From Deltaproteobacteria bacterium (GTDB lineage: Bacteria; Myxococcota; Kuafuiibacteriia; Kuafuiibacteriales; Kuafuiibacteriaceae): a stretch of 64,000 nucleotides of DNA. The notes under the pieces are model-generated. The model worked only from the letters and a program-made list of their open reading frames with translations, was not told the DNA's origin and searched no databases. Shown here one piece after another: positions 22,742 to 41,936 of this stretch. The DNA lies in NCBI GenBank assembly GCA_040218735.1, contig JAVJQW010000058.1, positions 32,001 through 96,000 on the forward strand, read 5' to 3'. Each line of letters begins with the position of its first letter. Within the stretch, counting starts at the first letter, position 1. The position numbers were made by a program, and so were the translations under genes.

Positions 22742-22828
22742 GGAGAGGTGGCCGAGTGGCTTAAGGCGCTGGTTTGCTAAACCAGTGTACGGGAAACTGT
22801 ACCGCGGGTTCGAATCCCGCCTTCTCCG
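22742..22828 (+). tRNA. tRNA-Ser(GCU), prophage integration target
   Basis: Acceptor GGAGAGG/CTTCTCC, anticodon arm CTGGT-TTGCTAA-ACCAG, long variable arm; 3' end duplicated at 58767. Confidence 0.95.
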
Positions 22829-23141
22829 CTTCCGCCCCGCCCCGCTTCCACTGCGTCAACACGATCGACGCAGTGGGGGCGGGGCTCTTCTTATCGAGCG
22901 GGACGACCTTCGCGCCAAGGCCGGTGTTCGGCGGCGGCGGGACGAGAGGCTCCTCGATCAGAGGGATCGGGTGGCGCTCCAAGAATTCGTCGAGCGCGCG
23001 GCGGACAAGCCTGGACCGGTTCGGCGATCCGTCCTCGTTCACGATCCCCAGCTTCATTGCGACCATGTCGACGCGCTCCTGAGAGACGCCGGTGCCAGAT
23101 TTCGAGATCCGCGTGGAGGCTACGACTGTGTCTCGCTTCAT
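22761..23141 (-). CDS. RHH (Arc/CopG-like) regulator spanning attL; prophage form 126 aa
   Basis: N-terminal strand, then helix and NRSRLVRRALDEFL (RHH helix B pattern); reads through the att core and ends antisense inside the tRNA. Confidence 0.7.
   Translation of the reverse strand: MKRDTVVASTRISKSGTGVSQERVDMVAMKLGIVNEDGSPNRSRLVRRALDEFLERHPIPLIEEPLVPPPPNTGLGAKVVPLDKKSPAPTASIVLTQWKRGGAEAEKAGFEPAVQFPVHWFSKPAP
22805..22830 (+). repeat. attL core (26 bp)
   Basis: CGGGTTCGAATCCCGCCTTCTCCGCT identical to 58767-58792. Confidence 0.95.
22839..22892 (+). terminator. phage-supplied intrinsic terminator downstream of the tRNA
   Basis: 19-bp stem 22839-22857/22867-22885 (two G-U pairs) followed by TCTTCTT. 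Confidence 0.7.
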
Positions 23142-23179
23142 GGTCTACACGGTAAACCGAGGTATACCGGGCACGTCAA
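23142..23179 (-). promoter_or_regulatory. putative leaderless promoter and tandem operators of the RHH gene
   Basis: TTGACG-N19-TACCGT-N7-ATG, overlapped by GGTCTACA, GGTAAACC and GGTATACC boxes. Confidence 0.55.
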
Positions 23180-23265
23180 GGGGTGCTGGCGAACTTTTCT
23201 CGTCGACCCGGCCGTGAGGTCAGGGGATGTTTCGCTGAGACGCATACGCCTACCCTGCGCCCCTG

Positions 23266-23547
23266 ATGAAGCGTTTACTGCCTCTGTTTCTCGTCTCGGC
23301 GTGCGCGATGCCGAATGCGCAGTCGAGAGTCGGCGCGGGCAACGCGAGCGTGGTGGCTGGTTCAGCTATGGCGGCTATGACCACATCCGCACTGGTCTAC
23401 TCGTTCTCTGAGTCGAGTGACCTCCCCGTTGCGCCGCTGCTCGTTGGGTACGGCCTGTCTTTTCTGTTCATCGTTGCTGGGACGGCCGTCGCGAATGTCG
23501 CTGCTTCGGACCTTGAACTCATTGAGACGAGCTCCACTGCCAACTAG
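23266..23547 (+). CDS. small membrane protein with lipobox (moron)
   Basis: MKRLLPLFLVSAC then two hydrophobic segments; lower GC. Confidence 0.55.
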   Translation: MKRLLPLFLVSACAMPNAQSRVGAGNASVVAGSAMAAMTTSALVYSFSESSDLPVAPLLVGYGLSFLFIVAGTAVANVAASDLELIETSSTAN

Positions 23548-23909
23548 CAGTCCGGATGCATCGATGATGCGTCGCACATCGCGATACAGGCGTCGTACTC
23601 GGAGACGCCCGGCCCAATCCCGCCCGGGGTGCCGGCGAGTCGCCGTCTGGCGATCGCGAGATCGATGCAATCTGCGATTGGCTCCCCCGGGTCGGCCTCG
23701 ATCGCTTCGATTCGGCACGCCCAAAAGCCGAGCTGGTTAGAGCACTCGATCTGCGCGCTCGAGCGGCACATCGTATCGCCCGCGTCGCACATCGCATCGA
23801 CGCACGCGGTGATCTCGGGCCCGAGCGCCTCGCACTCCTCGCGCGTCGGCGCGCCGTCACCGCAGGCGGCGAGGATCAGGAGGGCGAGGGGCGCGAGTCG
23901 GCGGAGCAT
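23544..23909 (-). CDS. Cys-rich lipoprotein (moron)
   Basis: MLRRLAPLALLILAAC lipobox; ten further Cys. Confidence 0.7.
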   Translation of the reverse strand: MLRRLAPLALLILAACGDGAPTREECEALGPEITACVDAMCDAGDTMCRSSAQIECSNQLGFWACRIEAIEADPGEPIADCIDLAIARRRLAGTPGGIGPGVSEYDACIAMCDASSMHPDC

Positions 23910-24025
23910 GGCGCCGATCGTACGCGCGGATGCGCGGGGAGCAAGGCGGGCGCGGTCACCCTAGCGTCTGCCGGCGCGATGGTTCTACGAACCCCAAAAA
24001 GTCGTCGGGCACCGAGTGGTTTCAG

Positions 24026-24739
24026 ATGGCGAGACGAATTAGCATGGGGCATACTTGGATGCAGATGAAGTCACCGAGGACCGTCGACCTGGAGTCGACC
24101 GAAGATCTCCCCCTTGACCTCCGGCCCATCGGGCTCTCACCGATCCGCCAGGCCATCGAGGCGGGTGCCGCAGCGTACCACGAGGCGGACCCGTTCAGCA
24201 GCCGGGCGTTCAAGGGCGCCGCCGTCTACGACACAGTCCTCGCGACGCTCCGACGGAACGTGAGGACGCTCAGAATCGGCGAGGACTACTACGATGGCGA
24301 GGTCGAGGCCGTTGCGATCGACGACGGCAGCGTGGTGCTCGTACCGATGCTGTCAGAGATCGGCGCCGACGGGGCGCCTTGCCCAAAGCGACAGCTGGGG
24401 CGCGCGAAGGCGCGCTTGTTGCGTGGGGTTCAGCAGTTGCACTTGAGCGGAATGTCGCCGCCCGACGGCGCCCCAGTGCATCCCAACCCTACCGTGTACG
24501 TGCTGGCCTTCTGTCGACTCAAGACGCCGCGTTGCGATCCGGAGACCGGCGTGCTTCGCCGCACCGCTATGCGTTTCTGGATCTGCGACTGGTCCACCGA
24601 CGAGGACGGCTCCTTCATGAAGCGGGGCCGATCCCTCGAGGGGCACATGGTCGAACTCGTTACGTACGGCGACGTCGATGGCGATGACGACGGGTCCGGT
24701 CCCGATCCAGAACCGGATGTCCCCGTCAAGCTTCGATAA
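24026..24739 (+). CDS. hypothetical protein, putative toxin partner of the XRE-M78 gene
   Basis: Co-oriented directly upstream of the HTH-peptidase gene; acidic/Pro C-terminal tail; start uncertain. Confidence 0.6.
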   Translation: MARRISMGHTWMQMKSPRTVDLESTEDLPLDLRPIGLSPIRQAIEAGAAAYHEADPFSSRAFKGAAVYDTVLATLRRNVRTLRIGEDYYDGEVEAVAIDDGSVVLVPMLSEIGADGAPCPKRQLGRAKARLLRGVQQLHLSGMSPPDGAPVHPNPTVYVLAFCRLKTPRCDPETGVLRRTAMRFWICDWSTDEDGSFMKRGRSLEGHMVELVTYGDVDGDDDGSGPDPEPDVPVKLR

Positions 24740-24785
24740 GGCCTAATTCGTTTACAGCGAATCGCTGTCATGACAAGCTTTCCGG

Positions 24786-25880
24786 GTGCTGCCGGGCTCC
24801 CGACTGACGACCGCGCGACTTCGCCGCGGCCTCACGAAGTCGGACCTCGCACGCCTCGTCGGCGTCACCTCCCAGGCCATCGGGAAGTTCGAGGCAGACA
24901 AGACGAGTCCATCCGAGGACGTCGCGAAGAAGCTCTTCGAGACCCTACGCTTTGGTGCGCGCTTCTTCGAGGCGAGTCCCGTCGAGGTTGTACAGCCCGA
25001 CATGCTGAGCTTTCGGACGCTCTCCCAGACGAAGGCCGCGTCGCGGCGGGCCGCTTGCGGATCGGCGACCATCATCTCCGAGATCATCGCGCCGGCGATC
25101 GATGCCGTCTGTGAGCTCGCGCCGCTCGAGGTACCCGACCTGAGCGGCGAAGAGCCCGAGGTCGCGGCTGCGATCGTTCGGGAGGAGTGGGGCCTGGCCT
25201 ACAGGCCGATCCCGAATGTCCTGCGACTGCTCGAATCGAAAGGCGTGCGAGTCTACTCGGTCTCCGACGACCTCTCCGTCGTCGATGCCTTTTCGTTCTG
25301 GTGCAGGGGCACCCCGTTCGTCGTCATGCACACAACCAAGGCGACGACTGGTGAGCGCCCACGCTTCGATGGCGCCCACGAGCTCGCGCACCTGGTCTTG
25401 CATCGCCGCGAGAAGCCCGTCGGGCGCGAGGTCGAACAGGAAGCTGATCGCTTTGCGAGCGCTTTCCTCATGCCGCGCGACGCAGTGCTCGCGGAGGCGC
25501 CCCAGGTGGTGACGCTCGGAACGGTTCGGCACCTGAAGAAGAGGTGGGGCGTCTCCTATGCCGCGTACGTCCGGCGCTTGTCGGACCTCGGACTGATCAG
25601 CGCGCAGAAGTACCGGATGCTGTGCATCGACATGTCGCGTCGCGGGTATCGAAAGCAGGAGCCCGATGGGATCGGGCGCGAGTCTGCGATCACGTTCAAG
25701 AAGCTCTTCGCGGCGCTCGAAGGTCGCGGGGTGACGCTCGAGGCCTTCGCGAAGCGCATCGCCCTGGATCCCCAGGAGCTGTCGTCGCTGATGTTCAACT
25801 GCGCGCCGCGGGTCGTCGTAACGGAGCGCCCGCAGATGCCGACGAAGCCGACAGGGCGACTGCGGCTCGTTGAGGCGTAG
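24786..25880 (+). CDS. XRE HTH fused to ImmA/IrrE (M78) metallopeptidase
   Basis: ARLRRGLTKSDLARLVGVTSQAIGKFE HTH; RFDGAHELAHLVLH...EQEADRFASAFLMP. Confidence 0.92.
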   Translation: MLPGSRLTTARLRRGLTKSDLARLVGVTSQAIGKFEADKTSPSEDVAKKLFETLRFGARFFEASPVEVVQPDMLSFRTLSQTKAASRRAACGSATIISEIIAPAIDAVCELAPLEVPDLSGEEPEVAAAIVREEWGLAYRPIPNVLRLLESKGVRVYSVSDDLSVVDAFSFWCRGTPFVVMHTTKATTGERPRFDGAHELAHLVLHRREKPVGREVEQEADRFASAFLMPRDAVLAEAPQVVTLGTVRHLKKRWGVSYAAYVRRLSDLGLISAQKYRMLCIDMSRRGYRKQEPDGIGRESAITFKKLFAALEGRGVTLEAFAKRIALDPQELSSLMFNCAPRVVVTERPQMPTKPTGRLRLVEA

Positions 25881-25934
25881 CGCGCCTTCCAGGAAAAAGC
25901 GGGGCGACCCGCTACGCGAGCCGCCCCTGCCGGC

Positions 25935-26093
25935 CTACCGCGTCGCCCTCACGAGCGTCCACCGCACAGCCCGCCGGCAGCTGCCGCACGGTGGGAAGCG
26001 CTCCCCCCTGCTGAGCGCGATTTCGCTGCAGCAAGAGCAATTTGCACGGTAGATGCCCGAACGGGCGCAACTCTGACCAGTGGTGCCAGACAT
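25935..26093 (-). CDS. YjzC-like zinc-ribbon protein
   Basis: TGQSCARSGIY..C.CC...GERFPPC..C....WTLV; AAGGAGG RBS. Confidence 0.75.
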   Translation of the reverse strand: MSGTTGQSCARSGIYRANCSCCSEIALSRGERFPPCGSCRRAVRWTLVRATR

Positions 26094-26418
26094 GGCCCAC
26101 CTCCTTGGTAGACCGGCCGGATCGCGATGTTGACGCACCCCCGCCTCGGGTGGCAGGCTCCGAGGTGGCTCTCAGCCCACCTGGTGCCCGGCACCTTCGG
26201 CAGGGGCGCGACGGCAATCGCATCCCCGGCCGGTCCAGTTACATTGTCGCCCGCCCGAGTCACTTCGAGCGGGCACCCTTATCCAGGGCAAACCTACCCT
26301 ACGATCGTCGATTCAAGGCGAGCAAGGGCGAACGCCCCGAAAATCGTTTGCATCTAGTAGGTACGGCAACGCGGGTACCCCACGGGGTGTGGTGCACTCC
26401 TGATCTGACGACGGGTGT

Positions 26419-26583
26419 TCAGGCTCGTTTTGGGGCCGTCGTGAAGATCCACCGGAAGGGCTGATGCAGCACGAAGTGGCCGATCCACGGCAGCTTCAGG
26501 CGCGTAAACGCCCACCAGAGCCACTCAGGGCACCAGTCTCGCTTGTAGGCGACGGCTTCGTAATCGACGTCCTCGGGGTCCAT
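26419..26583 (-). CDS. small Trp-rich protein (moron)
   Basis: 54-aa ORF preceded by TTGACC-N17-CAGCGT-N7-ATG. Confidence 0.45.
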   Translation of the reverse strand: MDPEDVDYEAVAYKRDWCPEWLWWAFTRLKLPWIGHFVLHQPFRWIFTTAPKRA

Positions 26584-26615
26584 ATCTCTCACGCTGGGCC
26601 TACTTCGCGGCCCGG

Positions 26616-27128
26616 TCAAAAAACTGCCCCCGTAGCGACCATCTCGAGCGAGAACTTCCGTCCCGAGCGCCACCCGCCGAGGTGTTCGTGCAGTCGTTGT
26701 TGCGCGTCCACGGCGCGACCGACGCCGTCTTCGGTGAACTCGAGGCCGATCCCCACGCACGCGTCGAGCATCGAGGGACGGACCGGCACCTGGAACCCGA
26801 GGGCGGACCTGCCCACGTGGTGAATGAATGCGCCGCGGTGAGCCAGGTACTCGACAGGCACGAGCGTCTCGTCGTGAAGCTCGCACCGCGCCTCGAACAG
26901 GACCGCGTCACGCTCCTTCGACGTCATGCGCTCCATCGACATCAAGTAGTGACCGTCGGCGAGGATCCAGTCGTCCTTGTCGAGGGAACGGACCACCGGG
27001 AACTTCATCGAAGCGCCGCGCCCGTCCGCGATCAGGACACCGAGCTGCCCACGCGACTCACGGCGGTCGAAGAATTCGAAAGCAGGCGAGAGCCACTCGA
27101 TCCGCAGCGCGCCCTCAACCCGGGTCAC
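26616..27128 (-). CDS. putative endolysin, DUF5675/L,D-transpeptidase-like
   Basis: LADGHY...FIHHVG...DACVGIG resembles the G-x-Y / H / GC pattern; follows holin-like genes; GTG start overlaps the upstream stop. Confidence 0.5.
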   Translation of the reverse strand: MTRVEGALRIEWLSPAFEFFDRRESRGQLGVLIADGRGASMKFPVVRSLDKDDWILADGHYLMSMERMTSKERDAVLFEARCELHDETLVPVEYLAHRGAFIHHVGRSALGFQVPVRPSMLDACVGIGLEFTEDGVGRAVDAQQRLHEHLGGWRSGRKFSLEMVATGAVF

Positions 27129-27394
27129 GCGGAGTCCTCGGGCTTCTCGGCGCGTTTGGACGGGAGCGCCGCCACGGTGTCGCGCGCGCCCTGACCGAAC
27201 ACCTGGACGCCGAACGCGGTGACGAGTCCGCCCGCGAGCCACTCCCAGACCGAGACCGGGATCCCGATGTTCGCGATCTTCTTCGCTACCGCGAGGAGGA
27301 TGACGAAGACGAAGATCGACTGCGCGCAGAGCACGGCACCGAAGAGTTTGCGACTCGGGATGTGGGTTGAGAGGTGCTTCACGAAGAACATCAT
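27125..27394 (-). CDS. putative holin
   Basis: 89 aa, two TM helices after SRKLF, charged C-terminus; lysis position. Confidence 0.55.
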   Translation of the reverse strand: MMFFVKHLSTHIPSRKLFGAVLCAQSIFVFVILLAVAKKIANIGIPVSVWEWLAGGLVTAFGVQVFGQGARDTVAALPSKRAEKPEDSA

Positions 27395-27783
27395 CGCTCC
27401 CGCTTCCGAGAGAGTCGTTCGACCGACTTCTCGATGTTGCTGCTCTGGATGAGCAGGGTGTCGATCTTCCCTTCGAGCCGGGTGACGCGATCGCGCTCCT
27501 CGGCACCGGCGGCCTCGAGCTTCTCGACCCGCTTCACGAGCTCGTCGACCTTCTCGCGGTTGACGACGATCGACATGCGAGCCGTCGTCGCGGCCTCGGT
27601 GGTCGAGACGATGACGCCCACGCCTGTACCGATGACGCCGATGAGCGCGACGACGATCGCCCAGACGAGCCGCACGTGCCGTTTCGTTACGGGCAGGTCG
27701 TCGGTGACGGGCGCCGGGGGCGGCCCGCTGCGCGAAATCTCCTCGCGGATGATTGCTCTCGTCTTGCCGGTGTCGTTCGTCAT
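27391..27783 (-). CDS. single-TM coiled-coil protein (holin/antiholin/spanin-like)
   Basis: TM LVWAIVVALIGVIGTGVGVIV then a coiled coil; ATGA overlap with the upstream gene. Confidence 0.6.
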   Translation of the reverse strand: MTNDTGKTRAIIREEISRSGPPPAPVTDDLPVTKRHVRLVWAIVVALIGVIGTGVGVIVSTTEAATTARMSIVVNREKVDELVKRVEKLEAAGAEERDRVTRLEGKIDTLLIQSSNIEKSVERLSRKRER

Positions 27784-30044
27784 GGCTGGGAACTCGTGTA
27801 GGTAGGCGTGCCGTTCTCGGTGAGCGTGGCGTTCCAGCACTCGAACCCGTTGCCCCCGGACGCGGTGTCCTCGAAGTCGCAGTGCATCAGGAAGCACGGG
27901 TGGCCGAGGACGTACTCGCCGAAGTCGTCCTCGTCGACGACGCCGCCCCCGCCGGAGGCCGTTGCGCAGGCTGCCGAGTTGTCATCGCCCGATGCGCCGT
28001 GCGTCGAGCAGTAGACCTGGAGCGCCTCCGCCTCGGTCAACGCACACGAGAAGTACGAGACGGCATCGACGTCCGACTGGTGACCGCTCAGGCCGATAGA
28101 GATCGGCTGGTCCTCGTCGTTGAGCGACGTCGGGATCGTGCCGACCGTCGTGCCGTCGTTGAACGCGCCGTCCTCGAAGCAGTGCACGGTCTGCGTCGCG
28201 CCGTCGTAGCTGAAGCCGACCTGGTCCCACCCCGCGGTCATCGTCCCGCCGCAGTCCATCCCAGCGCCGCCGCCCGCCTCGAGGCCGATCGCCCAGTGCA
28301 CGGATCCGTTGTTGGCGTTGCCGGTGACGACGCCGAACCACCACTGCTCGGTCGAAGCCCCGCCCGATCCCCAGCGCGAGACGCCAGGCTCGAACAGGCC
28401 CGGGTTGCTGATCCAGTAGAGGACGGTGTGGCCGTCGAGATCGTCGAGCGCGCCACTCGAAACGGCGAGCGACAGGTTGCCCCCGGACGCGTTGAACTCG
28501 ACCGACTCCGCGGAAGCGAACGTCGCCGCGTCGGGAGACGAGCCCGCGTCGCTCGGCCCAGCATCGCTCACGCCCGAGTCGGCGGGGCCGGAGTCCGCGA
28601 CGCCGGAGTCGGACGGGCCGCTGTCTGCGACGCCGCTGTCGCTGGGGCCACTGTCCGACGCGCCCGAGTCGGGGACGCCGCCGTCTCGTGAGAGGGTGCT
28701 CGGGAACACCGCGCCGAGCGCGAACTCGGTGCACGTGTCCGTTCCGCAGTGATCGGTCCTCGCGGCGGCGACGTTGGTGCCCCCTTCATCGGGGCTCGTC
28801 GGGTCGACCGGCGTGTTCACGACGCCGGTGTCGCCAAAGGAGACCTCGTCGAAGTCGCCGATCGGGGCGGCGAAGTCGAAGGTGACGTCGCACGTCTGCT
28901 GAGGCGCCGGGCAGCTCGCCGGCGTGACCGCCGAGACAGCCCCACCCGGCGTGACGAGAACCCCCGCGAGGTAGAAGCACCACCCGTACGTCACGACGCC
29001 TGCGCACTCCTGCGCGACGACGTCCGTCGTGTTCAGCGCGATCGGGCTCGTCGGCGACGCGACGGCGCAAGTCCCGCGCGCGCGACAGGGGGCGAAGAAC
29101 GTCGCGGTGATGGTGTCCTCGTCGACGACGGTGACCGAGGTCGGCGTGAGCGGCCGGTAGTCGCCGGTGTCGACGACGACCTGGATGACGTGCGCGTAGA
29201 GCTCGCCGATCGCGTTCGCGCCGGTGACGTCGGGGTGGAGCTGGTCCGCCCCCGTTTCGACGAAGTAGAACTGGCCCGCGATCGCGACGTCCGGATCGCC
29301 GGTGCCCCACCCGGGGAAGTCGGGCGCGTAGGGATGCCGCGCGATGCCGCTGACCCCGTAGTACTGCGCGCCGCCGCCGTTCGGGATGAGGGCCAGACCC
29401 GTGTAGAGGCTGCTCCAGCCGGCCGTCGCGGAGCCGATCTCCGTGCTGATGTGGCTCTCGATCGCGGCCTGAAACGCTTCGACCTCGGCCTGGTACGTGG
29501 CGAAGCTGTCACCGTCGAGCGCGTTGGCGTAGCCGCCGCTGTTCTCGACAAGGACCACCGGGAGAATCGTCCGCCCTTGCGAGGCCGCCCATGCGGCCGC
29601 GGCGTCGAGGCCGTCGATGAGGATCCCCGAGTTGTATGCGTTGACCTCCTGCCCGCCGTTCGGGCTGGCGATCATGATCCATTCTTCGTCGCGGTCGGCG
29701 ACGATGCGGTGCACCGCGCGCGTCTGGAACCGAGGTCCGCCGTCGGGATCGTCACCGGCCGGGAACACGCCGCCGTCCGCGGCCTCCCACGCGCACACGC
29801 CGCCGTCCGCGCGAGAGCACCCGACGGCGGTGGTGAAGGTAGAGGGGCCGTACGTCGACAGCGGATCGAGGTAGCTCGCGCCGACGAACAGCGCGACGCG
29901 GAACACGGGCGGCGGCGCGGTCGCGGCGAGGCCTCCGAAGCGCCACCACTGGTAGCCCTCGGCGTTGTCGCTCAACCCAGGCGATGGCCCTGGCCCAGGT
30001 CCGACGCCGGCCAGCGCCGCGGCGAGAAGCACCGGCGCGAGCAT
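27780..30044 (-). CDS. secreted multidomain protein: SGNH-like esterase, DSG-repeat linker, LamG/ConA-like domain
   Basis: Hydrophobic N-terminus MLAPVLLAAALAG; ALFVGAS and QLHPDVTGANAIG; (DSGxx)n; WDQVGFSYDG..VHCFEDG. Confidence 0.7.
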   Translation of the reverse strand: MLAPVLLAAALAGVGPGPGPSPGLSDNAEGYQWWRFGGLAATAPPPVFRVALFVGASYLDPLSTYGPSTFTTAVGCSRADGGVCAWEAADGGVFPAGDDPDGGPRFQTRAVHRIVADRDEEWIMIASPNGGQEVNAYNSGILIDGLDAAAAWAASQGRTILPVVLVENSGGYANALDGDSFATYQAEVEAFQAAIESHISTEIGSATAGWSSLYTGLALIPNGGGAQYYGVSGIARHPYAPDFPGWGTGDPDVAIAGQFYFVETGADQLHPDVTGANAIGELYAHVIQVVVDTGDYRPLTPTSVTVVDEDTITATFFAPCRARGTCAVASPTSPIALNTTDVVAQECAGVVTYGWCFYLAGVLVTPGGAVSAVTPASCPAPQQTCDVTFDFAAPIGDFDEVSFGDTGVVNTPVDPTSPDEGGTNVAAARTDHCGTDTCTEFALGAVFPSTLSRDGGVPDSGASDSGPSDSGVADSGPSDSGVADSGPADSGVSDAGPSDAGSSPDAATFASAESVEFNASGGNLSLAVSSGALDDLDGHTVLYWISNPGLFEPGVSRWGSGGASTEQWWFGVVTGNANNGSVHWAIGLEAGGGAGMDCGGTMTAGWDQVGFSYDGATQTVHCFEDGAFNDGTTVGTIPTSLNDEDQPISIGLSGHQSDVDAVSYFSCALTEAEALQVYCSTHGASGDDNSAACATASGGGGVVDEDDFGEYVLGHPCFLMHCDFEDTASGGNGFECWNATLTENGTPTYTSSQP

Positions 30045-30713
30045 TCACCGGACTCCGGCGACCGAGACGCTCGTGTTGATGGTGTCGACCTGTCCGACCG
30101 GGTACGCGCACGCGAGCCGACGCAACTCGTCCGTCGTTCGCGTTGTGCCGGTGACGCAGGTGCCCGCGCCGATGGCGGTGCAGTCGCCGTTATCGGCGCA
30201 CGGCGGGTAGCGGTACTCGTCACCGAGCACGCGCACCGCGGTCGAACACAGCGTCGCGCGCGCACCGGGGCGCGAGTAGACGGCGTCGAAGTCGATCGCG
30301 ACGTAGAGGCGCTCACCGTTCGCAACGTTGATGCAGCTCCCCCGTCCGCTCGCAGCGGCGACGTCGGGGTCGGTGACGTAGCAGGCGCCGCTCGCGTCGA
30401 CCGCCAGCGGCATCGAGACGTCCGGATCCATCGTCAGCGTCCCCACCCACTCGCCCCCCTTCGACTTGAAGACGGCCATCGTGGTGAACGGGATGCAGAT
30501 GTTGAGCAGGCCGCCGCCGGTCGCTCCGTTGCTGTCGTAGGTCAGCGGCGCGGCGGTATCGGCGGAGCCGTAGACGGTGCGATCCCCGTCGCCCGGCGCC
30601 GGGACCTGCTGGTAGCCGACGCCCTTCGAGCTCGGCGGGCGCGCGGGACTGTCGGCCGAGAGCAGGACGAAGAAGACGAGAGCGAGGAGCCCGAGCAGGC
30701 GGGGGGTGTGCAT
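30045..30713 (-). CDS. secreted Cys-rich protein
   Basis: Signal peptide MHTPRLLGLLALVFFVLLSA; 8 Cys including C-ADNGD-C. Confidence 0.75.
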   Translation of the reverse strand: MHTPRLLGLLALVFFVLLSADSPARPPSSKGVGYQQVPAPGDGDRTVYGSADTAAPLTYDSNGATGGGLLNICIPFTTMAVFKSKGGEWVGTLTMDPDVSMPLAVDASGACYVTDPDVAAASGRGSCINVANGERLYVAIDFDAVYSRPGARATLCSTAVRVLGDEYRYPPCADNGDCTAIGAGTCVTGTTRTTDELRRLACAYPVGQVDTINTSVSVAGVR

Positions 30714-30719
30714 GTCCGC

Positions 30720-30756
30720 ACGGTGCGCGCCCGCGGGGACGTTTCGGCCCGGGTGA
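30720..30756 (-). promoter_or_regulatory. putative phage late promoter motif, copy 2
   Basis: 28/37 identity to 43762-43798; ends 6 nt before ATG. Confidence 0.6.
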
Positions 30757-30758
30757 TC

Positions 30759-31307
30759 CTACTCAGCCACCGGCGCGGGAAGGTTCGCCGCGGGGATCGC
30801 GGCGTTCCGGACGCGAACCCGGCGAAGCGAAGCCGCGTTCGACGACCCTACGGTGTGGTCGATCTCCACGGTAACCCACTGCTCCCCCGTGCCCGTGTCT
30901 GCGGTCGCGATCGTCGAGTCGTCGGTGCTCTCGCCGCTCGCGGTGTGGCTGTGCACCACCGGCGTCGCGCCCCCGACCGTGATCCGAACCTCGCCCTCAT
31001 TCGACGCCGGCATGTCGCAGACCGAACGCACCTCGACCTCCTGCGCGTCGGGGTCGATGAACGTCAGGAAGCGGAGGCGCGTCACGAACCCCGAGCCGGT
31101 CAGGAAGCGGATCCAGAGCGTGCCGACTTCGGAGCCGTCGGATCCCCACCCGGAGGGCCCTGTCACCGCGCACACGTGCGACTGGGCGACGCCGAGGCCC
31201 GCGGCGTAGTTGAGGAGCTCCTCGACCGTCTCGAGGTCCTCCGCCGTGATGGGCACGCCGACGGCGAGGAGCCAGGGGTTGAGGGTCGTGCTGTTGGCGG
31301 TCGGCAT
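30759..31307 (-). CDS. putative tail-tip/minor tail protein
   Basis: Beta-rich 182 aa at the end of the tail operon. Confidence 0.65.
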   Translation of the reverse strand: MPTANSTTLNPWLLAVGVPITAEDLETVEELLNYAAGLGVAQSHVCAVTGPSGWGSDGSEVGTLWIRFLTGSGFVTRLRFLTFIDPDAQEVEVRSVCDMPASNEGEVRITVGGATPVVHSHTASGESTDDSTIATADTGTGEQWVTVEIDHTVGSSNAASLRRVRVRNAAIPAANLPAPVAE

Positions 31308-31311
31308 CGGA

Positions 31312-31947
31312 TCACCCCACGGACGCCCAGAAGGCCTCGACGAGCAGCGGCGTGTACGCCTGGTTCGCCCCCGTCTCGTCCTGCGCGAACGCCTGCACGC
31401 GCACGCGCGCTTCGGCGGGGAGGCTGCCCGACACGTTCGACAGCACGACGAACGGCGCCGACGAGGAGTTGAGCGGATCGCCGGGGCCCACGAGCGTCAT
31501 GTTCACGAAGCGGTTGGTCCGCCCCCCGAGGGGGTTGGTCGTGGCAGTCTCGCGTTCGTCCTCCGTTCGATCACCCGTGTCGTTCGCGCCGCCCACGTCG
31601 ACGACGACGCGGTGATAGACGACCGCGGGCGAGGTGTTGTGGATGCGGTAGTGCGCGATCGCGTAGATGTGCGTCGCCTCCGCGAGGATCAACGCGCCAT
31701 CGAAGTCGCCAACGTCGACCCACGAGCTCGCGATGAACTGGTCGAGGTTGTCGCCGTAGGCGGAGGGCGCGCGCATGTACGCGCTGTAGGGCTGGTGCCC
31801 GATCAGCTTCCCCGCGTGCCGGATGTGCTGGTAGCCGCCGCGGAGTCCCTCCGCCGCCACCTCAGCCACCGTCGGCGACTCGGGGTGGTGATACGCCGGC
31901 GGGAGCAACGCCAGCGGCCCGAAGTATCGCTGTCCGTCGAGCGGCAC
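31312..31947 (-). CDS. putative minor tail protein
   Basis: 211 aa, tightly packed in the tail operon. Confidence 0.65.
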   Translation of the reverse strand: MPLDGQRYFGPLALLPPAYHHPESPTVAEVAAEGLRGGYQHIRHAGKLIGHQPYSAYMRAPSAYGDNLDQFIASSWVDVGDFDGALILAEATHIYAIAHYRIHNTSPAVVYHRVVVDVGGANDTGDRTEDERETATTNPLGGRTNRFVNMTLVGPGDPLNSSSAPFVVLSNVSGSLPAEARVRVQAFAQDETGANQAYTPLLVEAFWASVG

Positions 31948-31948
31948 G

Positions 31949-32809
31949 TCAGACCGTCCGCGCCTGCGAGTAGCTCATGAAGTTGAAGAGGGCCCACTCC
32001 GGGAGCTTGTAGATCGCGTAGTTGCCGGCGACGAGACCGCGGGTCACCTCGCTCGGCGAGTAGGGCCGACCGACGACGAGCTGCCCGCCGCTTCCGATCC
32101 CCTGCGTGAGCACAGCGACGATCTCGCGACCGGGGACGACCACATTGCCGGACCCGTCCGTGATCTCGACATAGTGACCGCCCTCCGCCCAGCTGAGCGA
32201 TCCGCTGCCAGTCGCGAACCATGTCAGCGAATCGGCATCCTGCACGTAGTCGGCGCCCATCGCTTCGAGGTCGCCACTATTGGGCGAACCGAACGTCCCT
32301 GTCGCCCCTGCCTGCGCGGTCGCGAACCCGCGCACCCAAAGTTCGAAGTACTCGCGCGTGCCGGGGATCATCTGGACGCCATCGATCGACAGGTCCTGAG
32401 TCGACCCGGTGCCGGTGACGCTGATGACGTTGTCGTCGGAGCTGCGCGCGTTCGCGCGGAACGGCACGGCGCGGGTCGCGACCTGAAACAGCATCTCGTG
32501 CCCCGACGAGAAGACGCCCGACAGGCGGACGTTCGCGCGTGTGTGCCCGGGGAACTTCTCGACGGTGATCGGCAACGTGATGCGCGTCCACACCAGCGGA
32601 GCGAAGCCGGCGTAGGCGCCGCCGTTGACCTCGGACGTGTCGTAGGTCGGCCAGATCAGGTTGAAGAGCACCTGCGGCTTCGTGATCAGCCGGTTGCGCT
32701 GCATCGTCATCACGCGGAGCAGGTGCGCGGACATGGGGTTGCCGTCGGTGAACGCGCCACTCTCCAGCGCGCCGAACAGCGAAGCGATCTCGGGGGTGCG
32801 AATGGGCAT
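31949..32809 (-). CDS. putative minor tail protein
   Basis: 286 aa, coupled to the hub-like gene. Confidence 0.65.
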   Translation of the reverse strand: MPIRTPEIASLFGALESGAFTDGNPMSAHLLRVMTMQRNRLITKPQVLFNLIWPTYDTSEVNGGAYAGFAPLVWTRITLPITVEKFPGHTRANVRLSGVFSSGHEMLFQVATRAVPFRANARSSDDNVISVTGTGSTQDLSIDGVQMIPGTREYFELWVRGFATAQAGATGTFGSPNSGDLEAMGADYVQDADSLTWFATGSGSLSWAEGGHYVEITDGSGNVVVPGREIVAVLTQGIGSGGQLVVGRPYSPSEVTRGLVAGNYAIYKLPEWALFNFMSYSQARTV

Positions 32810-35163
32810 CAGGGCTCTCCGTAAAGCCAGGCGTCGTCGTTGCTCGAGCCGGGCGTCAGGTTGGTGGCGTCGGACATGAAGGCGTAGCGCGACGTCTGTT
32901 GGGGATCGGCGTCGTCGTAGTTGGCGTAGTCGAGCACCTGGCCAGCGGCCATGAGCCCTCCGAAGTCACCGCTCAGCTCGATGTCGTCGCCGGCGACGCT
33001 GACCACCGTCTCGGTCGCGCCGCCGCCTGCGTCGGTGCCGTCCAGATTCAGGATGCGCACGACGTCGTCCACGTGGAAGCCGGCCGCGTCGTTCGTTGGC
33101 AGCGGAGACTGCGCGTCGGTGTGCGTGTAGCGGTTGGTGGTCACGATCGCGATCACCCCGTCGCTCACCTCGACGATGTGGGCCGAGGGCGCGACGCGCC
33201 CGATCCGGACGTCGGGGCCGTAGCCGAGCATCCGGCTGTTCGTGTAGAAGCCGCCGCCCGCGCCCTCCTGCCCGCGCGGCTCCGCCTCGAGGTGCTGAAC
33301 GAGCACGGAGTCCCATCCGCGCAGGCCGGCCGCGAGGTTCGGCAGCTCCGCGAGCGTCAGCTCACCGACGTCGCCCAGCGGTAGGCCACTCCAGACGGAG
33401 GCATCGAAGTCGCCGTCGACCTCGATGCGCGGCCGGCGCGTCCGCCACAGGCGCGACAGCCCACGGCGCGCGTAGATCTCCGGCGTGTCGGGATCGCCGG
33501 CGGGGACGTGGATGTCGATCGGCTTCTCGTCGGTGCCGTAGTACCCGCCCTGGCCGAACGTCGCGCCGAACTCGGCGCTGTGGAATGTGACGGGCGCCTT
33601 CGTGTTCGGCCCGACGATGTAGCGGATCGCGCTCGCCTGCGACGCCCTGTCACGCCGCACGCTGACCCGCGGGAGGTACTGGCGCCGGCCTCCGACGGGG
33701 CGCTTCAGGATGTTGGCCTCGCCGATCGTGAGCACCGCGGAGCCGATCAGCGGGAGCCGCGGCAGGACGATCTTCGCGAGCCCGGCGCTCGTGATGAAGT
33801 AGGCGCCCATCGGGCGGAGGAAGTTGTGCGTCACGAGCTCGCCGAACTCGACCGCCTCGTCGCCGAAGACGAAGTAGGGGAACAGGTAGTCGGGCGTGCG
33901 GTTCCAGACGTCGAACCACGAGTCCCAGTCGATGTTGCCCGCGGGGTAGCCGACGCCGAAACCGGGAGGCAGCGACGCGAAGTTGCCGCGCGCGGCGACG
34001 TAGTTCGTCAGCTCGAGGCCGTCGCCCTCGCGCGCGCTCGAGGTGAGCAGGATGGCCATCACCGGGATGAAGTGCGCCACCGGCGTCCACGTCCCGGAGG
34101 TGCGGCTCGTCGACGGCGACGGCCCGGGGCTGTAGCGGAAGGACCCCGGCGCGCTGGGCTCGGCCATGAAGACCTGATGGAACACCTCGTCGGCTTTCAG
34201 CTCGGCGCGACCCGTCCGCAGGAGATCGCGGCGGTACGTGCGGAGGCGCGTCCCGACGAAGCCGTTCGCGTCGCCGGTGAGGGTCATGACCTCGCCGCTC
34301 TCGTGGCGCACGTAGAAGACGTCGGGCGTCGTGTTGGTCGTCCACAGGCGGAGGTCCGACGCGCGCGTCTGCGGCGGGATCGAGAGGATGACCTCCGCGT
34401 CGTTCGAGGGGTCGCCGTTGACCGCCTCGGCCCGCATCCGCCGCGGCTGCAGCGGGATCTGTCGGGCGAGCGGCTTGAGCTGCGACGACGCCAGGAGCAC
34501 CCATCGGTTCAGATCCTCGGACCACTCGAGCGAGTCGATCACCCAGGCGCCGAGCTCCTCCTCGTCGGCGGAGCTGTCGCCGTCGATCGGCGCGATGTGA
34601 AGGTACGCGCGCCGGCCTCGGAGGAAGTTGATCGACTGGTAGACCTCCGAGTCCTCGTCGTGGACGGTCGGGTCGGTGTTCAGCGCGCCGCGCTGCACGG
34701 TGATCGACGAGCCCCCGACGACGGTGATGCGCATCGCCTCGGCGCCGTTCCACACGTTGTCGTCCGCCGAGAGGCCCGTCGTCGAGTCGACGCCGACGCT
34801 GGTGTCGTTGGTGTCGATCGTCTGCGAGAGCCGCGTCAGGGGCGGGCGCTCGGTTCGGATCTCCTGGGTGAGCAGGTCGTCCCCGTCGAGCAGCTCGATC
34901 GTCAGCGAGCCGAGCTCGGTCGCGCCGCCGAGGTCCGTCACGCGCTCGCGCAGCGGCGCGGGGATCTCGGTGAGTAGGTCCTGCCACACCGAGGACGGCA
35001 TCGAAGCGGCGTAGTCCGGGATCGCGGTGCAGAACCGGTAGCGGCCGTCGCTGTCCGCGGCGGCGAGCTCGGCGCCCGACAGCGCGGGTCCGAGGCCATC
35101 GATCCGAAGGATCCACGTCCACGACTGATCGTCGCGCGCGATGTTCGTCGCGAAGTCGGTCAC
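32809..35163 (-). CDS. tail hub/central tail-tip protein
   Basis: GTG start overlapping the upstream stop; 784 aa; EAMRIT...ITVQRGALNT motif; second gene after tape measure. Confidence 0.7.
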   Translation of the reverse strand: MTDFATNIARDDQSWTWILRIDGLGPALSGAELAAADSDGRYRFCTAIPDYAASMPSSVWQDLLTEIPAPLRERVTDLGGATELGSLTIELLDGDDLLTQEIRTERPPLTRLSQTIDTNDTSVGVDSTTGLSADDNVWNGAEAMRITVVGGSSITVQRGALNTDPTVHDEDSEVYQSINFLRGRRAYLHIAPIDGDSSADEEELGAWVIDSLEWSEDLNRWVLLASSQLKPLARQIPLQPRRMRAEAVNGDPSNDAEVILSIPPQTRASDLRLWTTNTTPDVFYVRHESGEVMTLTGDANGFVGTRLRTYRRDLLRTGRAELKADEVFHQVFMAEPSAPGSFRYSPGPSPSTSRTSGTWTPVAHFIPVMAILLTSSAREGDGLELTNYVAARGNFASLPPGFGVGYPAGNIDWDSWFDVWNRTPDYLFPYFVFGDEAVEFGELVTHNFLRPMGAYFITSAGLAKIVLPRLPLIGSAVLTIGEANILKRPVGGRRQYLPRVSVRRDRASQASAIRYIVGPNTKAPVTFHSAEFGATFGQGGYYGTDEKPIDIHVPAGDPDTPEIYARRGLSRLWRTRRPRIEVDGDFDASVWSGLPLGDVGELTLAELPNLAAGLRGWDSVLVQHLEAEPRGQEGAGGGFYTNSRMLGYGPDVRIGRVAPSAHIVEVSDGVIAIVTTNRYTHTDAQSPLPTNDAAGFHVDDVVRILNLDGTDAGGGATETVVSVAGDDIELSGDFGGLMAAGQVLDYANYDDADPQQTSRYAFMSDATNLTPGSSNDDAWLYGEP

Positions 35164-35954
35164 ACGACCCTCCGCATCGACAGGTTCGCGCGCCAGCGCA
35201 CGTTGTAGCGCGGGTCTCGGTCGTACGGCTCGCCGAGGTCCTTGGTCCGGTACAGGCCGTAGGAGCTGCTCGTCCGGACGGTCTCGTCCTCGTACAGCCG
35301 GAACGGCCGCCCGAGGCTCATGCTGTTGATCCAGGCCTCCTCGAGCGTCCCGTAGGGCTCGGTCGCGGGCGCGTACTCGGCGAGCGTTACCGACTGGTGG
35401 AGGCGCGCGATCTCGATCTCGCGCTCGCGGAGCGGCGTCGCGAATCGCGAGACCCGGGTCCGGCCGCTGACCGCGGCGCTGATGCCTCCGACGATCGGCT
35501 GCCGGTCGCGGCTGTCGACGGTCGCCGCCTTCATCGGCCGCCACAAGCCGCGCGGCATCAGCGTGCCGACGACGGCGTCAGCGGTCGGGCCGACGATCGC
35601 GTCCGCGAAGCCGAAGATCGACTCGTCGAGCGTCGAGTTCGGCCAGTCGATCGTGATGTTGTCGCCGCCGTCGAGCGAGCCGAGCTCCACGAGGAAGCTC
35701 GAGTTGAGCGCCGCGTACCCGCCGGTGATCTCGGTGTGCGTCCCGAGCGCCGTGGAGACGACGCGGAGCAGGTCGCCGACGCCGCCGACCCCGCCGTCCG
35801 CGTCCGCCTGGCCGTCTCCGGACAGCCAGTAGTTGCGTCCGACGGTGAAGCCGACCGTGAGGTCCTCGGTCGTGCCGCCGACGTCGACGCGGAGCGTGTA
35901 CGACGCCGCCGCGAAGCGGATCGGGGTGGCGATGAGGTAGTTCGGAACGGACAT
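35160..35954 (-). CDS. distal-tail (Dit-like) protein
   Basis: Immediately after tape measure; positional call. Confidence 0.55.
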   Translation of the reverse strand: MSVPNYLIATPIRFAAASYTLRVDVGGTTEDLTVGFTVGRNYWLSGDGQADADGGVGGVGDLLRVVSTALGTHTEITGGYAALNSSFLVELGSLDGGDNITIDWPNSTLDESIFGFADAIVGPTADAVVGTLMPRGLWRPMKAATVDSRDRQPIVGGISAAVSGRTRVSRFATPLREREIEIARLHQSVTLAEYAPATEPYGTLEEAWINSMSLGRPFRLYEDETVRTSSSYGLYRTKDLGEPYDRDPRYNVRWRANLSMRRVV

Positions 35955-38362
35955 CAGGACCCCGCGGCGCCGAACGGCTGAAGCGCCCCGTACTCGCGCA
36001 GCGCGTCGGTCGCCTCGCGCGCGGCGCGCCGGCGGTCGCCGACGAACCCGGGGAAGTGAAGGTGGACCTCCTGCGGTGCGGCCCCAGCGCCGTTCGCTCC
36101 CGCGAACGCCGGGTTGAAGCCGCCCGGCGAGGGCGAGGAGCGCCCGCCGCTCGCTCCGCCGCCGCCCGCGGAGAGGCTCGGGACCGGCGCGGAGGTCTGG
36201 CCGCCGCCGCCCAGCGCCTTACCGGCGAGGATCATCCCGGCGCCGGCGGTCGCAGCGAGGAGCCCGCCTGCGACAGCGAGGCCCGGGGGCCCGGTGACGA
36301 GCTGCAGGCCCGGGATGAAGCTCAGCGCGCCGAGGACCGAAGCGGCGAAGCCGGTCTGGATCAGCATGGTCCCGAGACCGACGAGGACGTCGCCGAGCTT
36401 CTCCTTGAAGGCTCCGGTGTCCCACTGCACGAGCATCTCGGCGAACGCGGCGCCGACGCCCTGCAGCGCCGCGCCGAGCGTGGATCCGATGACCGACCCG
36501 AAGTCGGACACGGACTGGCCCATCGCCTGGAGGCTGCCCTTCAGGTTGCTCCCGAGCTGCGAGAAGTACTGGCCGAACTGGTCGATCGTCGGCAGCCCCA
36601 GCACGCCGAGGAAGCTCGGCGTGACGCCCGACTCGCGCGCGCCCCGCGCCGTCGTTCGTCCGCCGGCGCCGATGGTCGGGTCGAACGCGGGCGCTGCGCC
36701 GCGCCGCGCTGAGGTGCGATCTGCGAAGTCGAGGCCTCCGATCCCGAACGCGCCGAGGCGCACGCGCTCCTCGGGCGTCAGCGTGTCGATGCTGTCGCCT
36801 CCGCCCCCGGCCCCGGCCCCGCCGCCTCCCGTGCCGCCTCCGCCCCGACCGTCGCGCGGGGTGAAGATGTTCCGGCCCCCGCGGCCCCCGCGGCCGAAGC
36901 CGTTGTCGCGCCCGCGGCCGTTCGCGATGTTGTCGAGCATGTCGCCCAACCGGTTGAGGTGGTCCGACAGCGTCTTGCCCGCGGGCTCGGCGATCACCCG
37001 GCCGTTGTCGAAGCCCCCGGTCGCGAACGCACCGACCGCGATGCCTCCGGGCCCGAGCGCCGACCACTTCGCGACCTTCTCCCAGTCGGTGGTCTTGATG
37101 AACATCGAGACCTCGCCGAGGGCCTTGGAGACGCCCGCGAACGCGGTCAGAAGGACACTCGCCAGGCCCGCGAGGCTCTTCACGAAGTCGTCGACCGCGG
37201 CCGCGCCGCCGGGGCTCTGGATCCAATCGATGATGTCCTCGAGCGCGCTGTTGATCGCCGCCATCGCCTGATAGGCCGACTTGCTGTCGGTGACCGTCTG
37301 CCCGAGCGCGATCTGCGCCGCGTTCTTCAGCGCCCCGAAGCGCGTCACCTGGAAGTCGAGGGTCCGCGTCATCTTGCGGAACGCCTCGTCGGTGGCACCG
37401 CTCCGGCCGCGCATGTCGTCGAGGATCTCGGTGAAGCGCTGCCCCTCGTTGGCGGTCAGCGTCATCACCGCGTTGAGGCCCTCGACGCGTCCGAACAGCG
37501 CGAGGAGCTGCTGCTCGGTCGCACCCGACCGTGCGACGTCATCGAGGAAGCCCCTGAGCCCCTTCGCCCGCAGCGCGGACGTGTTGAACTCAAGGCCGAG
37601 CTCCTTCGCCGCGCGCTTCGCCTTCGGCGTCTCCTTCACGATCCCCACGAGGGCGGAGCGCACCTGCGTCACGGCTTCGGCCGTCGACACGCCCGGTCCG
37701 GTCGCGGCGGCGACGGCGGCGGCGAGCTCGTGGAAGGGGACGTCGAGCTGCGCGGCGAGGGGCGCGACCTGGCCGAGCGTCGTCGCGAGCTCCTGCGCGT
37801 TCGTCTTACCGTCGCGGATCGCGATGAACAGCGTGTCGGAAGCGTCCGCCGCCTTGAGCCCTTGCGCGCTGTAGGCGTTCACGACGTTCGTGAGGCCGTC
37901 GACGGCGGTCGTCACGTCGGTCACGCCGCCGATCGCGAGCTTGTTCGCGGCGTGAAGGATCTCGGTCGCCTGCGTCGCGTCCGTCGCACCGGCGCTGATC
38001 GCCTGGTAGAGCGCCTTCGCGTTCGACGTGGCGTCGCCGCCGTAGAGGGCGGCCATCTCGAAGGTGATGTCGCGGATCTTCGCGATCGGGAACTCCGCGT
38101 CGGAGGCGATCGTGGTGACCTCGGCGACGGCCTTGCCGTAGGCGTTGGCGGCGCGCGTCGCGTCGATCATCTGTCGCGCGATGGCGGCGGGGACCGCCGA
38201 GATCACGCGCCAGCCCTTGTTCGCGAGCTCGAGCGCGCTGTTGATCTCGGTGGCCGATCGCTTGAAGTGCGTGACGAGACGCTTCAGCGCCTTCGCCGCC
38301 TTGCGGTCGTCGACGTCGATCGGCACGACGGCGCTTGCGCGCTTGCCCCTCTTAACGGCCAC
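35954..38362 (-). CDS. tape measure protein (TP901-like)
   Basis: AKALYQAISAG, ANKLAIGG, DGKTNAQELA, LFGRVEG; Ala-rich helices with hydrophobic C-terminus. Confidence 0.9.
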   Translation of the reverse strand: MAVKRGKRASAVVPIDVDDRKAAKALKRLVTHFKRSATEINSALELANKGWRVISAVPAAIARQMIDATRAANAYGKAVAEVTTIASDAEFPIAKIRDITFEMAALYGGDATSNAKALYQAISAGATDATQATEILHAANKLAIGGVTDVTTAVDGLTNVVNAYSAQGLKAADASDTLFIAIRDGKTNAQELATTLGQVAPLAAQLDVPFHELAAAVAAATGPGVSTAEAVTQVRSALVGIVKETPKAKRAAKELGLEFNTSALRAKGLRGFLDDVARSGATEQQLLALFGRVEGLNAVMTLTANEGQRFTEILDDMRGRSGATDEAFRKMTRTLDFQVTRFGALKNAAQIALGQTVTDSKSAYQAMAAINSALEDIIDWIQSPGGAAAVDDFVKSLAGLASVLLTAFAGVSKALGEVSMFIKTTDWEKVAKWSALGPGGIAVGAFATGGFDNGRVIAEPAGKTLSDHLNRLGDMLDNIANGRGRDNGFGRGGRGGRNIFTPRDGRGGGGTGGGGAGAGGGGDSIDTLTPEERVRLGAFGIGGLDFADRTSARRGAAPAFDPTIGAGGRTTARGARESGVTPSFLGVLGLPTIDQFGQYFSQLGSNLKGSLQAMGQSVSDFGSVIGSTLGAALQGVGAAFAEMLVQWDTGAFKEKLGDVLVGLGTMLIQTGFAASVLGALSFIPGLQLVTGPPGLAVAGGLLAATAGAGMILAGKALGGGGQTSAPVPSLSAGGGGASGGRSSPSPGGFNPAFAGANGAGAAPQEVHLHFPGFVGDRRRAAREATDALREYGALQPFGAAGS

Positions 38363-38702
38363 GGCCCAGAGCCTTCAGTTCCCGCTTCTCCTGCCGACGG
38401 AAGGCCGCGAGCAGGATGAGCTTTGCGTCATATTCGAAGGCAGAGAGGGTCTCGTAGTCCTCCGGTGTCAGCTCGATCTGGCCGGCGCCGTACGCGAACA
38501 CTGGCGCCCACAGGTGGGGGCGCTCGAGGAGCGCGGCCTCGGGGTGGCGGCGAATCCACACGCCGTCTGCGTCCTCGCCGATCCAGTCGTGGTCGACGCG
38601 CTTGAAGCTCTTCCGCGCTTCCTCGTCTTCGTGCTCGATCCCGTCCCACCGATCCGCGAGGGGCATCGGCGCCGGTTCGAAGTAGCCGAACGCCTCCGCC
38701 AT
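38352..38702 (-). CDS. tail assembly chaperone extension (gpT-like)
   Basis: Lies between chaperone and tape measure; its frame is open back past the chaperone stop in the -1 frame. Confidence 0.6.
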   Translation of the reverse strand: MAEAFGYFEPAPMPLADRWDGIEHEDEEARKSFKRVDHDWIGEDADGVWIRRHPEAALLERPHLWAPVFAYGAGQIELTPEDYETLSAFEYDAKLILLAAFRRQEKRELKALGRGR

Positions 38703-38767
38703 CTCGGGGTCCTTGGCGACGTCGGAGAGCGGCGGCAGATCGCCGGCGTCGTAGGTGGCCAGGACCC

Positions 38768-39271: not shown

Positions 39272-39286
39272 CGACGGTGGCCCCCC

Positions 39287-40474: not shown

Positions 40475-40475
40475 T

Positions 40476-41732: not shown

Positions 41733-41735
41733 GGG

Positions 41736-41936
41736 TCAGCTCTTGCGGCGTCGGCGCTTCTTCTTGGGCGGCGGGGCGGCCTCGATCTTCGAGGCCTGAG
41801 AGATTGGCGTGGGCGAGGAGACGGGCGCGTAGCCTTCGGGCGCGGTCGCCATCCGCCACCCTCGGGACTCGTACTGCCGCCGGTACGCCGCCGGCAGCAG
41901 CACGGGCCCGTTCCCCGACCTCAACGCCAGGTACAT
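41736..41936 (-). CDS. small basic protein downstream of capsid
   Basis: 66 aa, start overlaps the capsid stop, ends PPPKKKRRRRKS. Confidence 0.6.
   Translation of the reverse strand: MYLALRSGNGPVLLPAAYRRQYESRGWRMATAPEGYAPVSSPTPISQASKIEAAPPPKKKRRRRKS

Follow-up and report, generated by a model that had tools for sequence, protein, structure and literature searches.

A predicted ribbon-helix-helix regulator gene crossed by the attachment core of a deltaproteobacterial prophage, and its likeness to integration-dependent immunity

[quoted passage not shown] The viral forms of Rep and Int both carry a tag ('--LAA or similar') and the prophage form of Rep is truncated and stable; cro and the early lytic promoter are oriented divergently from rep, the bacterial site attB is placed in a tRNA gene, and neither a recombination directionality factor (RDF) nor arm sites take part (same sources). 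Further cases have been predicted, according to the accessible text of the reports, in Gordonia, Streptomyces, Arthrobacter and Bifidobacterium phages, and the Bifidobacterium phage study relies on in-silico inference of the same type as that of an earlier note on the DNA analysed here. In phage Mx8, as far as the accessible part of a review states (PMC6070905), attP lies inside int itself and a small helix-turn-helix (HTH) gene, uoi, adjoins int. The DNA in question, hereafter the window, is a stretch of 64,000 nucleotides (contig JAVJQW010000058.1, positions 32,001 to 96,000, assembly GCA_040218735.1) of a Deltaproteobacteria bacterium, and holds a prophage whose attachment core runs through the 3' end of a small open reading frame (ORF). 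The reading preferred here, to which we give about an even chance, is that this ORF encodes a ribbon-helix-helix (RHH) regulator at the head of the int transcription unit, that integration splits this unit, and that the exchange of the protein tail is a by-product of the placement of attP.

The regulator ORF (22761..23141, minus strand) encodes 126 amino acids in the prophage form, where it reads through the core with the codons AEKAGFEP and ends ...AEKAGFEPAVQFPVHWFSKPAP before the stop. Its last 23 codons are antisense to the tRNA-Ser(GCT) gene, with the final 14 codons and the stop running antisense to the body of the tRNA. In the free-phage (attP) form the frame is completed on the minus strand by 58714..58766, which supplies 17 codons and a TAG (VAPTSSPQLDFASLKAA), third positions being G or C in 14 of these 17 codons. 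This continuation can be read without any rejoining at the right end of the prophage, since the minus strand of 58714-58792 is contiguous at attR and gives AEKAGFEP-VAPTSSPQLDFASLKAA with the TAG at 58714-58716. Integration thus exchanges the last 17 residues (...SLKAA) for 14 tRNA-antisense residues, and the comparison of the two forms (126 vs 129 aa) describes a swap without truncation. The earlier note had given the path of this ORF through a 26-bp core and a hand-made attP joint; all its coordinates and residues were right when the repeat, the tRNA and the translation were derived anew, and the attP form rebuilt by script has the claimed 129 aa, ending ...SLKAA, and the claimed TAG.

The target of integration is a host tRNA-Ser(GCT) gene predicted by ARAGORN (22742..22829, plus strand), whose 3' end is rebuilt from phage DNA. 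The common core forms an exact direct repeat of 26 bp, with the attL copy at 22805..22830 and the attR copy, which is the displaced tRNA 3' end followed by the tRNA terminator, at 58767..58792; equality of the copies was checked by script. This core occurs exactly twice across the 11.6-Mb genome, and a search with a 24-base part of it, allowing up to 2 mismatches, returned three sites, namely both cores (exact) and the neighbouring tRNA-Ser(TGA) gene (2 mismatches), with 0/100 shuffled controls giving any match. In a genome of the same genus (G011) a single copy of the core lies within an intact, single-copy tRNA-Ser(GCT) gene, which corresponds to an empty attB, and directly 3' of this gene stands a homologue of the right flank of the window from position 58793, including a hairpin-plus-T-run terminator. 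Among 401 genomes sampled across the phylum, allowing up to 1 mismatch, the core was found only in the source genome (twice) and in G011 (once). The empty site gives independent support for the boundaries of the prophage, whose body occupies 22831..58766 (about 36 kb; 35,962 bp between cores). With a repeat of the tRNA 3' end, a terminal tyrosine integrase, structural genes and an empty site in a relative, the island is a siphovirus-like, tRNA-integrating temperate tailed phage; its G+C content is like that of its surroundings (0.69 within vs 0.68 outside).

No attP or attB junction is present in the source assembly. One public DNA run (X1), possibly the source sample itself, was found to contain this DNA, with no RNA run listed beside it. 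Its Logan contigs break at the attL core, the host-side contig ending at 22827 and a contig of 36,042 bp starting at 22800; if collinear with the window, the latter would end at about 58841, inside a tandem repeat of 137-bp units, and would thus span attR. No attP or attB joint was listed for the Logan contigs aligned to window positions 21800-24200, and the contig depths at the attL break (20.9 and 26.2) are not of a kind that can be ranked and allow no inference on excision. The tandem repeat itself (58805-59230; 137-bp unit, 3.2 copies, 89% match) lies on the host side, directly right of attR. Each unit holds a hairpin-plus-T-run terminator-like element resembling the one behind the tRNA, and G011 has a single related copy.

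The N-terminal part of the ORF product (residues 1-62; 22956..23141, minus strand) is predicted to be an RHH DNA-binding domain, with a strand at about residues 3-14 and helices at about 21-30 and 44-56. Folded as a homodimer with ESMFold2, it scored 0.65 (best of three controls, 0.00), above a mark reached by 21/30 proteins solved as one-chain pairs and by 0/23 solved as single chains. The runs agreed in at least 94% of the contacts with a partner pLDDT of at least 80, and the contacts 9:9, 10:8 and 7:11 describe an antiparallel N-terminal ribbon of residues 3-14, with the helix 42-57 packed against its own copy (contact 49:49). Since many RHH dimers have been solved, this result speaks for likeness to the RHH fold alone and not for binding, and residues 1-62 are assigned to an RHH-type dimer at the level of the model. 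The AlphaFold monomer is of low confidence (mean pLDDT 53.9) and shows the helices 21-30 and 44-56; Foldseek with this monomer returned 0 matches at E ≤0.001, and a phmmer search of the PDB with the ORF gave a single chance match (E 1.3). The Atlas neighbours of the ORF are small phage proteins, one cluster having RHH_1 in 12% of its members and another being a DUF3950 cluster. Residues 58-126, a tail of about 70 residues that is probably disordered, are proline-rich and of low confidence in the model.

A separate RHH-like ORF (RHH_1, E 0.057) was seen in another genus of the family (G004), where it also crosses the 3' end of a tRNA-Ser(GCT) gene (L016, G004:C56, 14107-14622, plus strand). It uses another frame, has no sequence relation to the ORF of the window, and stands at the edge of a remnant of about 4 kb with low G+C at third codon positions (GC3), which carries ParB-like and 748-aa genes and neither an integrase nor a repeat. 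The two ORFs are analogous at most.

The gene that follows the ORF in the free-phage form encodes a tyrosine integrase of 384 aa (57490..58644, minus strand; ATG at 58644 with GGAGG 10 nt upstream) matching Pfam PF14659 and PF00589 and PHROG phrog_1 (E 3e-29); public data give it instead as 357 aa from GTG 58563. The distance from the stop of the ORF to int on the same strand is therefore 69 bp (ATG 58644) or 150 bp (GTG 58563), and a terminator scan of the minus strand found no terminator-like site in between. From int onward (58.6 down to 27.1 kb) the minus strand also carries every gene assigned to recombination, replication, packaging, the head or the tail, among them those for an MT-A70 methylase, DUF5131, a YqaJ-like exonuclease, RecT, a replication initiator, a terminase-like protein, a tape-measure protein (E 5e-54) and a tail fibre. 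The integrase has one relative, a protein (P0007) with 70% identity on a 4.6-kb Logan contig; none was found in scans of viral, genome or metagenome contigs, at E ≤1e-20 in 20 genomes of the order or at E ≤1e-25 in the 401 phylum-sampled genomes, and the best match in the phage database, from a Propionibacterium phage, has 28% identity.

In this arrangement the ORF would encode a small RHH DNA-binding protein and, in the circular phage genome, would open a minus-strand unit leading across attP into the integrase gene and on through the train of genes for recombination, replication and structure. With the core in the 3' end of the ORF, integration has two outcomes that can be read from the sequence itself: the tail is exchanged, and the ORF, along with any promoter upstream of it, is displaced by 36 kb from int to the opposite end of the prophage, where it faces outward. 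The intergenic region upstream of the ORF (23142..23265) would be the promoter or operator site, at which the RHH protein may regulate its own promoter and thereby set the expression of int and the early genes in the circular form. The anatomy of the locus, the coding signal, the empty site of a relative and, at the level of a model, the RHH dimer are shown; we infer the promoter, the co-transcription with int, the binding to DNA and whatever part the protein plays in regulation. As a stability switch the tail swap is unproven, and it most likely results from where attP is placed.

Several observations weigh against this reading. The promoter scan found 0 promoter-like sites of consensus type upstream of the ORF; operator-like repeats in this region do not go beyond 9-mers, the repeat and operator searches gave only 12-mers at noise level, and no such repeat is common to the upstream region and other regions of the prophage. 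With residues 1-62 as query the curated RHH families of Pfam stay below their cut-offs and cover the second helix only (RHH_1, E 0.052, 14.0 bits vs a cut-off of 20.5; RHH_3, E 0.067, 13.6 bits vs 21.6), so that the RHH assignment of the earlier note holds for the dimer model and falls short in the family search. The ORF retrieved only itself from 5.8 billion clustered proteins (1 match of 46 candidates). Met26, preceded by AGGAG and used in the Logan call, is a possible start that would delete the ribbon strand. The free-phage form does end in AA, an ending expected about once in 60 that favours a degron, and the layout is exactly that which defines IDI.

The last two points lead to the best of the rival explanations, which is nevertheless unlikely: the RHH protein would be the prophage repressor, its free-phage form degraded through ...SLKAA, and integration would yield a stable, active form as in BPs. 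The topology is that of the published systems, on the available portions of PMC3694055, PMC4557955 and PMC9262239, and the earlier note, which had proposed such a switch, was borne out as to the core inside the ORF; int is co-oriented and 69 bp away, and attB lies in a tRNA gene. The ORF lies in the attL-proximal block together with morons and a defence system, the usual place of genes expressed in the lysogen, and the HTH-M78 gene of this block is a RosmerTA antitoxin rather than a repressor. No arm-binding N-terminal domain was detected in the integrase by family match (its domains start at residue 54-68), and no excisionase family was matched among 37 prophage ORFs searched with Pfam or PHROGs (not all of them with both), two negatives that are weak evidence in a phage as novel as this one. 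Other features speak against this rival. The integrase ends ...LIEEIADA and its relative P0007 ...AVDVPL, neither with an AA-type tag, whereas the known systems, as far as the accessible text goes, have a tag on Rep as well as on Int. A divergent cro is missing, the lytic genes lie downstream of int and share its orientation, and integration does not truncate the regulator. A further regulator (48682-49347), which carries two HTH repeats of the XRE type, has phage-repressor family matches.

The free-phage tail itself had been taken in the earlier note for an ssrA-like degron, and this claim turned out weak. C-termini in AA are found in 93 of the 5605 coding-like ORFs of this genome (1.66%) and in 1.77% of 30,881 non-coding frames, and endings with a hydrophobic residue before AA in 0.48%; in the ORF, position -3 is taken by a lysine in place of a hydrophobic residue. 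For the host tmRNA, ARAGORN predicts the tag ANDDFVAAAVA. With a tag ending in AVA and the lysine at -3, the likeness to a degron is limited to the small, non-polar end, and the AA ending, rare as it is among coding-like ORFs, is at about 1 in 60 a modest hint that was noticed after the fact, and no demonstration. A functional degron swap is accordingly improbable.

A somewhat lower probability is given to the view that the ORF has no function as read, being either a chance frame in DNA of 69% G+C or the source of a non-RHH product that starts at Met26 and is missing the ribbon strand. This view draws on the absence of a Pfam or PHROG family for the whole ORF at E ≤0.1 (NCBIfam and PADLOC left it unnamed as well), on its standing as an ORFan both in the clustered set of 5.8 billion proteins and among the 1.84 billion representatives, and on the overall GC3 of 0.80, below that of most prophage genes (0.65/0.48/0.80 at codon positions 1/2/3). 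Frames that cross a tRNA end are common too: 58 of 79 ARAGORN tRNA calls, some of them doubtful, are crossed at the 3' end by an antisense ORF of 40 codons or more, so that an open frame over a tRNA end is unremarkable in a genome of 69% G+C. The coding pattern at the three positions speaks against a chance frame, since it begins at the first ATG and ends at the core: in 30-codon windows GC3 is 0.60-0.67 upstream, reaches 0.77 at the ATG, stays at 0.83-0.90 between 23111 and about 22871, and drops at the core. Three independent pipelines predict a gene here, IMG with 126 aa, NCBI with a 65-aa record from the same ATG that is apparently cut, and Logan with 101 aa from Met26, so that the ATG at 23141 is the start in 2/3 public gene calls. 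The start may be either Met1 or Met26, because no Shine-Dalgarno sequence precedes the ATG at 23141 but an AGGAG stands 9 nt upstream of Met26; for the same lack of a Shine-Dalgarno sequence the mRNA from ATG 23141 may be leaderless. The confident homodimer model uses residues 3-14, which favours the start at Met1. The ORF 22761-23141 is probably a real gene.

The homologue searches fit a gene of narrow distribution. HMMER against the 1.84 billion representative proteins (E ≤0.001) gave five matches, of which two are fragments of the ORF itself, one (P0005) matches solely in the tRNA-antisense tail and the remaining two are long proteins aligned in several short stretches, and tblastn against 50,697 phage records gave none. 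A six-frame search of 20 genomes of the family matched in 11/20, the source genome (G000) included. At 11 of the 12 loci outside G000 the match falls on an ARAGORN tRNA-Ser(GCT), so that it reflects the conserved tRNA read antisense and not a homologue of the ORF. The twelfth locus (G001:C4) has no tRNA, looks like a low-complexity match and was rejected as a homologue. The best explanation for the ORF is an ORFan, that is, a phage gene that appears restricted to its lineage.

Least probable is that the RHH protein acts as a recombination accessory, either setting directionality in the manner of an excisionase or serving as a regulator dedicated to int, with an incidental overlap of attP: it would stand directly upstream of int in the circular form, as do xis in lambda and uoi in Mx8 (the latter a small DNA-binding gene adjoining int in the accessible part of PMC6070905), and no other excisionase candidate was seen among the 37 ORFs scanned, but a full-text literature search for excisionase, ribbon-helix-helix and recombination directionality factor together gave no match, and in the prophage the gene lies 36 kb from int and faces outward, where co-expression for excision would need separate promoters.

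The remaining genes of the prophage are arranged with the lysogeny and moron genes at 22.8-26 kb and the plus-strand genes mainly at 23.2-26.1 kb, with a possible further small plus-strand ORF at 49463-49666. Directly beyond the upstream region of the RHH gene, and diverging from it, lies a weakly coding ORF of 93 aa (23266-23547, plus strand; GC3 0.70-0.75) for a putative membrane protein or lipoprotein without family match in Pfam or PHROGs. It is followed by a small Cys-rich ORF, likewise with a lipoprotein-type signal sequence (23544-23909, minus strand), also without family match; placed between the RHH gene and the defence pair, both are candidates for morons or superinfection-exclusion genes. 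The defence pair (23930-25880, plus strand) is a prophage-borne, RosmerTA-like system called by PADLOC, the RosmerTA system being described in the accessible part of a preprint (bioRxiv 10.1101/2022.05.11.491447). Its second gene (24786-25880) encodes a 364-aa HTH_3 and Peptidase_M78 protein with a full-length match to the antitoxin RmrA (E 7e-115), and the 269-aa protein encoded upstream of it gives a weak match to RmrT (E 2.4e-4). By the RmrA match the HTH_3 and Peptidase_M78 gene is excluded as a competing repressor.

The protein encoded at 48682-49347 (minus strand), with its pair of XRE-type HTH repeats, matches phrog_2328 (E 6e-14) and, under the cut-off, an RstR-like family (E 1.9e-6). 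From its family matches it remains a candidate for an alternative immunity or late-gene regulator, and with a small ORF from which it may diverge (49463-49666, plus strand; coding-like GC pattern, no family match) it could make up another switch region within the train of lytic genes. The MT-A70 DNA methyltransferase gene (56584-57411, minus strand; E 4.6e-27) is the second gene downstream of int. ARAGORN also calls a tRNA-Pro(CGG) at 42372-42456 (minus strand), inside an ORF of 375 aa with high GC3 on the same strand (41936-43063), which may be a false prediction or a phage tRNA.

An IDI switch built on an RHH protein outside Actinobacteria, in which the ...SLKAA form is short-lived and integration both stabilizes the repressor and severs int and the lytic train from the promoter of the circular form, is a tentative proposal with a rather low probability. 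If true, integration would flip protein stability and operon connectivity together. IDI is considered a minimal lysis-lysogeny switch that may be ancestral, and a case in a delta-proteobacterial, myxobacteria-like prophage with a different DNA-binding fold would show more than one origin of this design. Myxobacterial genetics, in which int/attP of Mx8 already serves as the standard tool, would also gain from it a small regulatory part that senses integration. If the tail swap is neutral, the locus would be a clean case of integration splitting a transcription unit and rewriting the end of a protein. In either event it comes with an intact-looking phage of 36 kb, a defined attB and an uninfected sister genome.

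Small phage-encoded RHH transcription regulators are known from P22, namely Arc and Mnt. To our knowledge their genes are neither linked to an attachment site nor altered by integration, and no sequence similarity between them and the ORF was detected with Pfam, PHROGs or phmmer against the PDB. Promoters that are active only in the circular form and read across the joined ends are known from ICEclc (Pcirc of intB13) and from Tn916, where an outward-facing unit joins int and the downstream genes only after excision and circularization. Those elements are integrative and conjugative elements and transposons and are not known to swap a protein tail, and the promoter proposed here is a putative one.

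The likeness to IDI is one of layout. As in the mycobacteriophage systems, a small gene for a (here predicted) DNA-binding protein contains the attP core in its 3' end and in the free-phage form stands directly upstream of a tyrosine int and in the same orientation; attB overlaps a tRNA gene, here tRNA-Ser(GCT), integration alters the C-terminus of the regulator, whose free-phage form ends in AA, and neither an RDF match nor an arm-binding domain of the integrase was detected. The fold is modelled as RHH here whereas it is HTH there, the prophage form is not shortened (126 vs 129 aa), the integrase has no AA-type tail, the place of a divergent cro is taken by the membrane-like ORF of 93 aa with its weak coding signal, and the lytic genes, downstream of int, share the strand of the regulator itself. 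Three of the defining features of IDI are missing at this locus. The host is delta-proteobacterial as opposed to actinobacterial: a host protein from the flank has relatives in MAGs named as delta-proteobacterial (68% and 64% identity), and an Atlas lead points to Myxococcota. The case is known from its sequence, without homologues. IDI outside actinobacterial phages did not appear in the literature searched, as judged from titles and abstracts, although the 'prophages of various bacteria' of the founding study, as cited in the available part of PMC3694055, may include some; likewise, a literature search combining attP, RHH, integrase and prophage brought up no description of such a split gene among the entries listed.

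Mx8 offers a second comparison, as far as the accessible part of the review goes. The integrases are unrelated at the level searched, and the gene that is split differs: in Mx8 it is int, with uoi an HTH gene, whereas here int is intact and a separate RHH-like ORF is divided. The two phages belong to a related host group and have in common an attP placed in coding sequence, so that integration rewrites the C-terminus of a protein, together with a small (here predicted) DNA-binding gene beside int and a DNA adenine methylase gene near it, mox in Mx8 and MT-A70 in the prophage described here.

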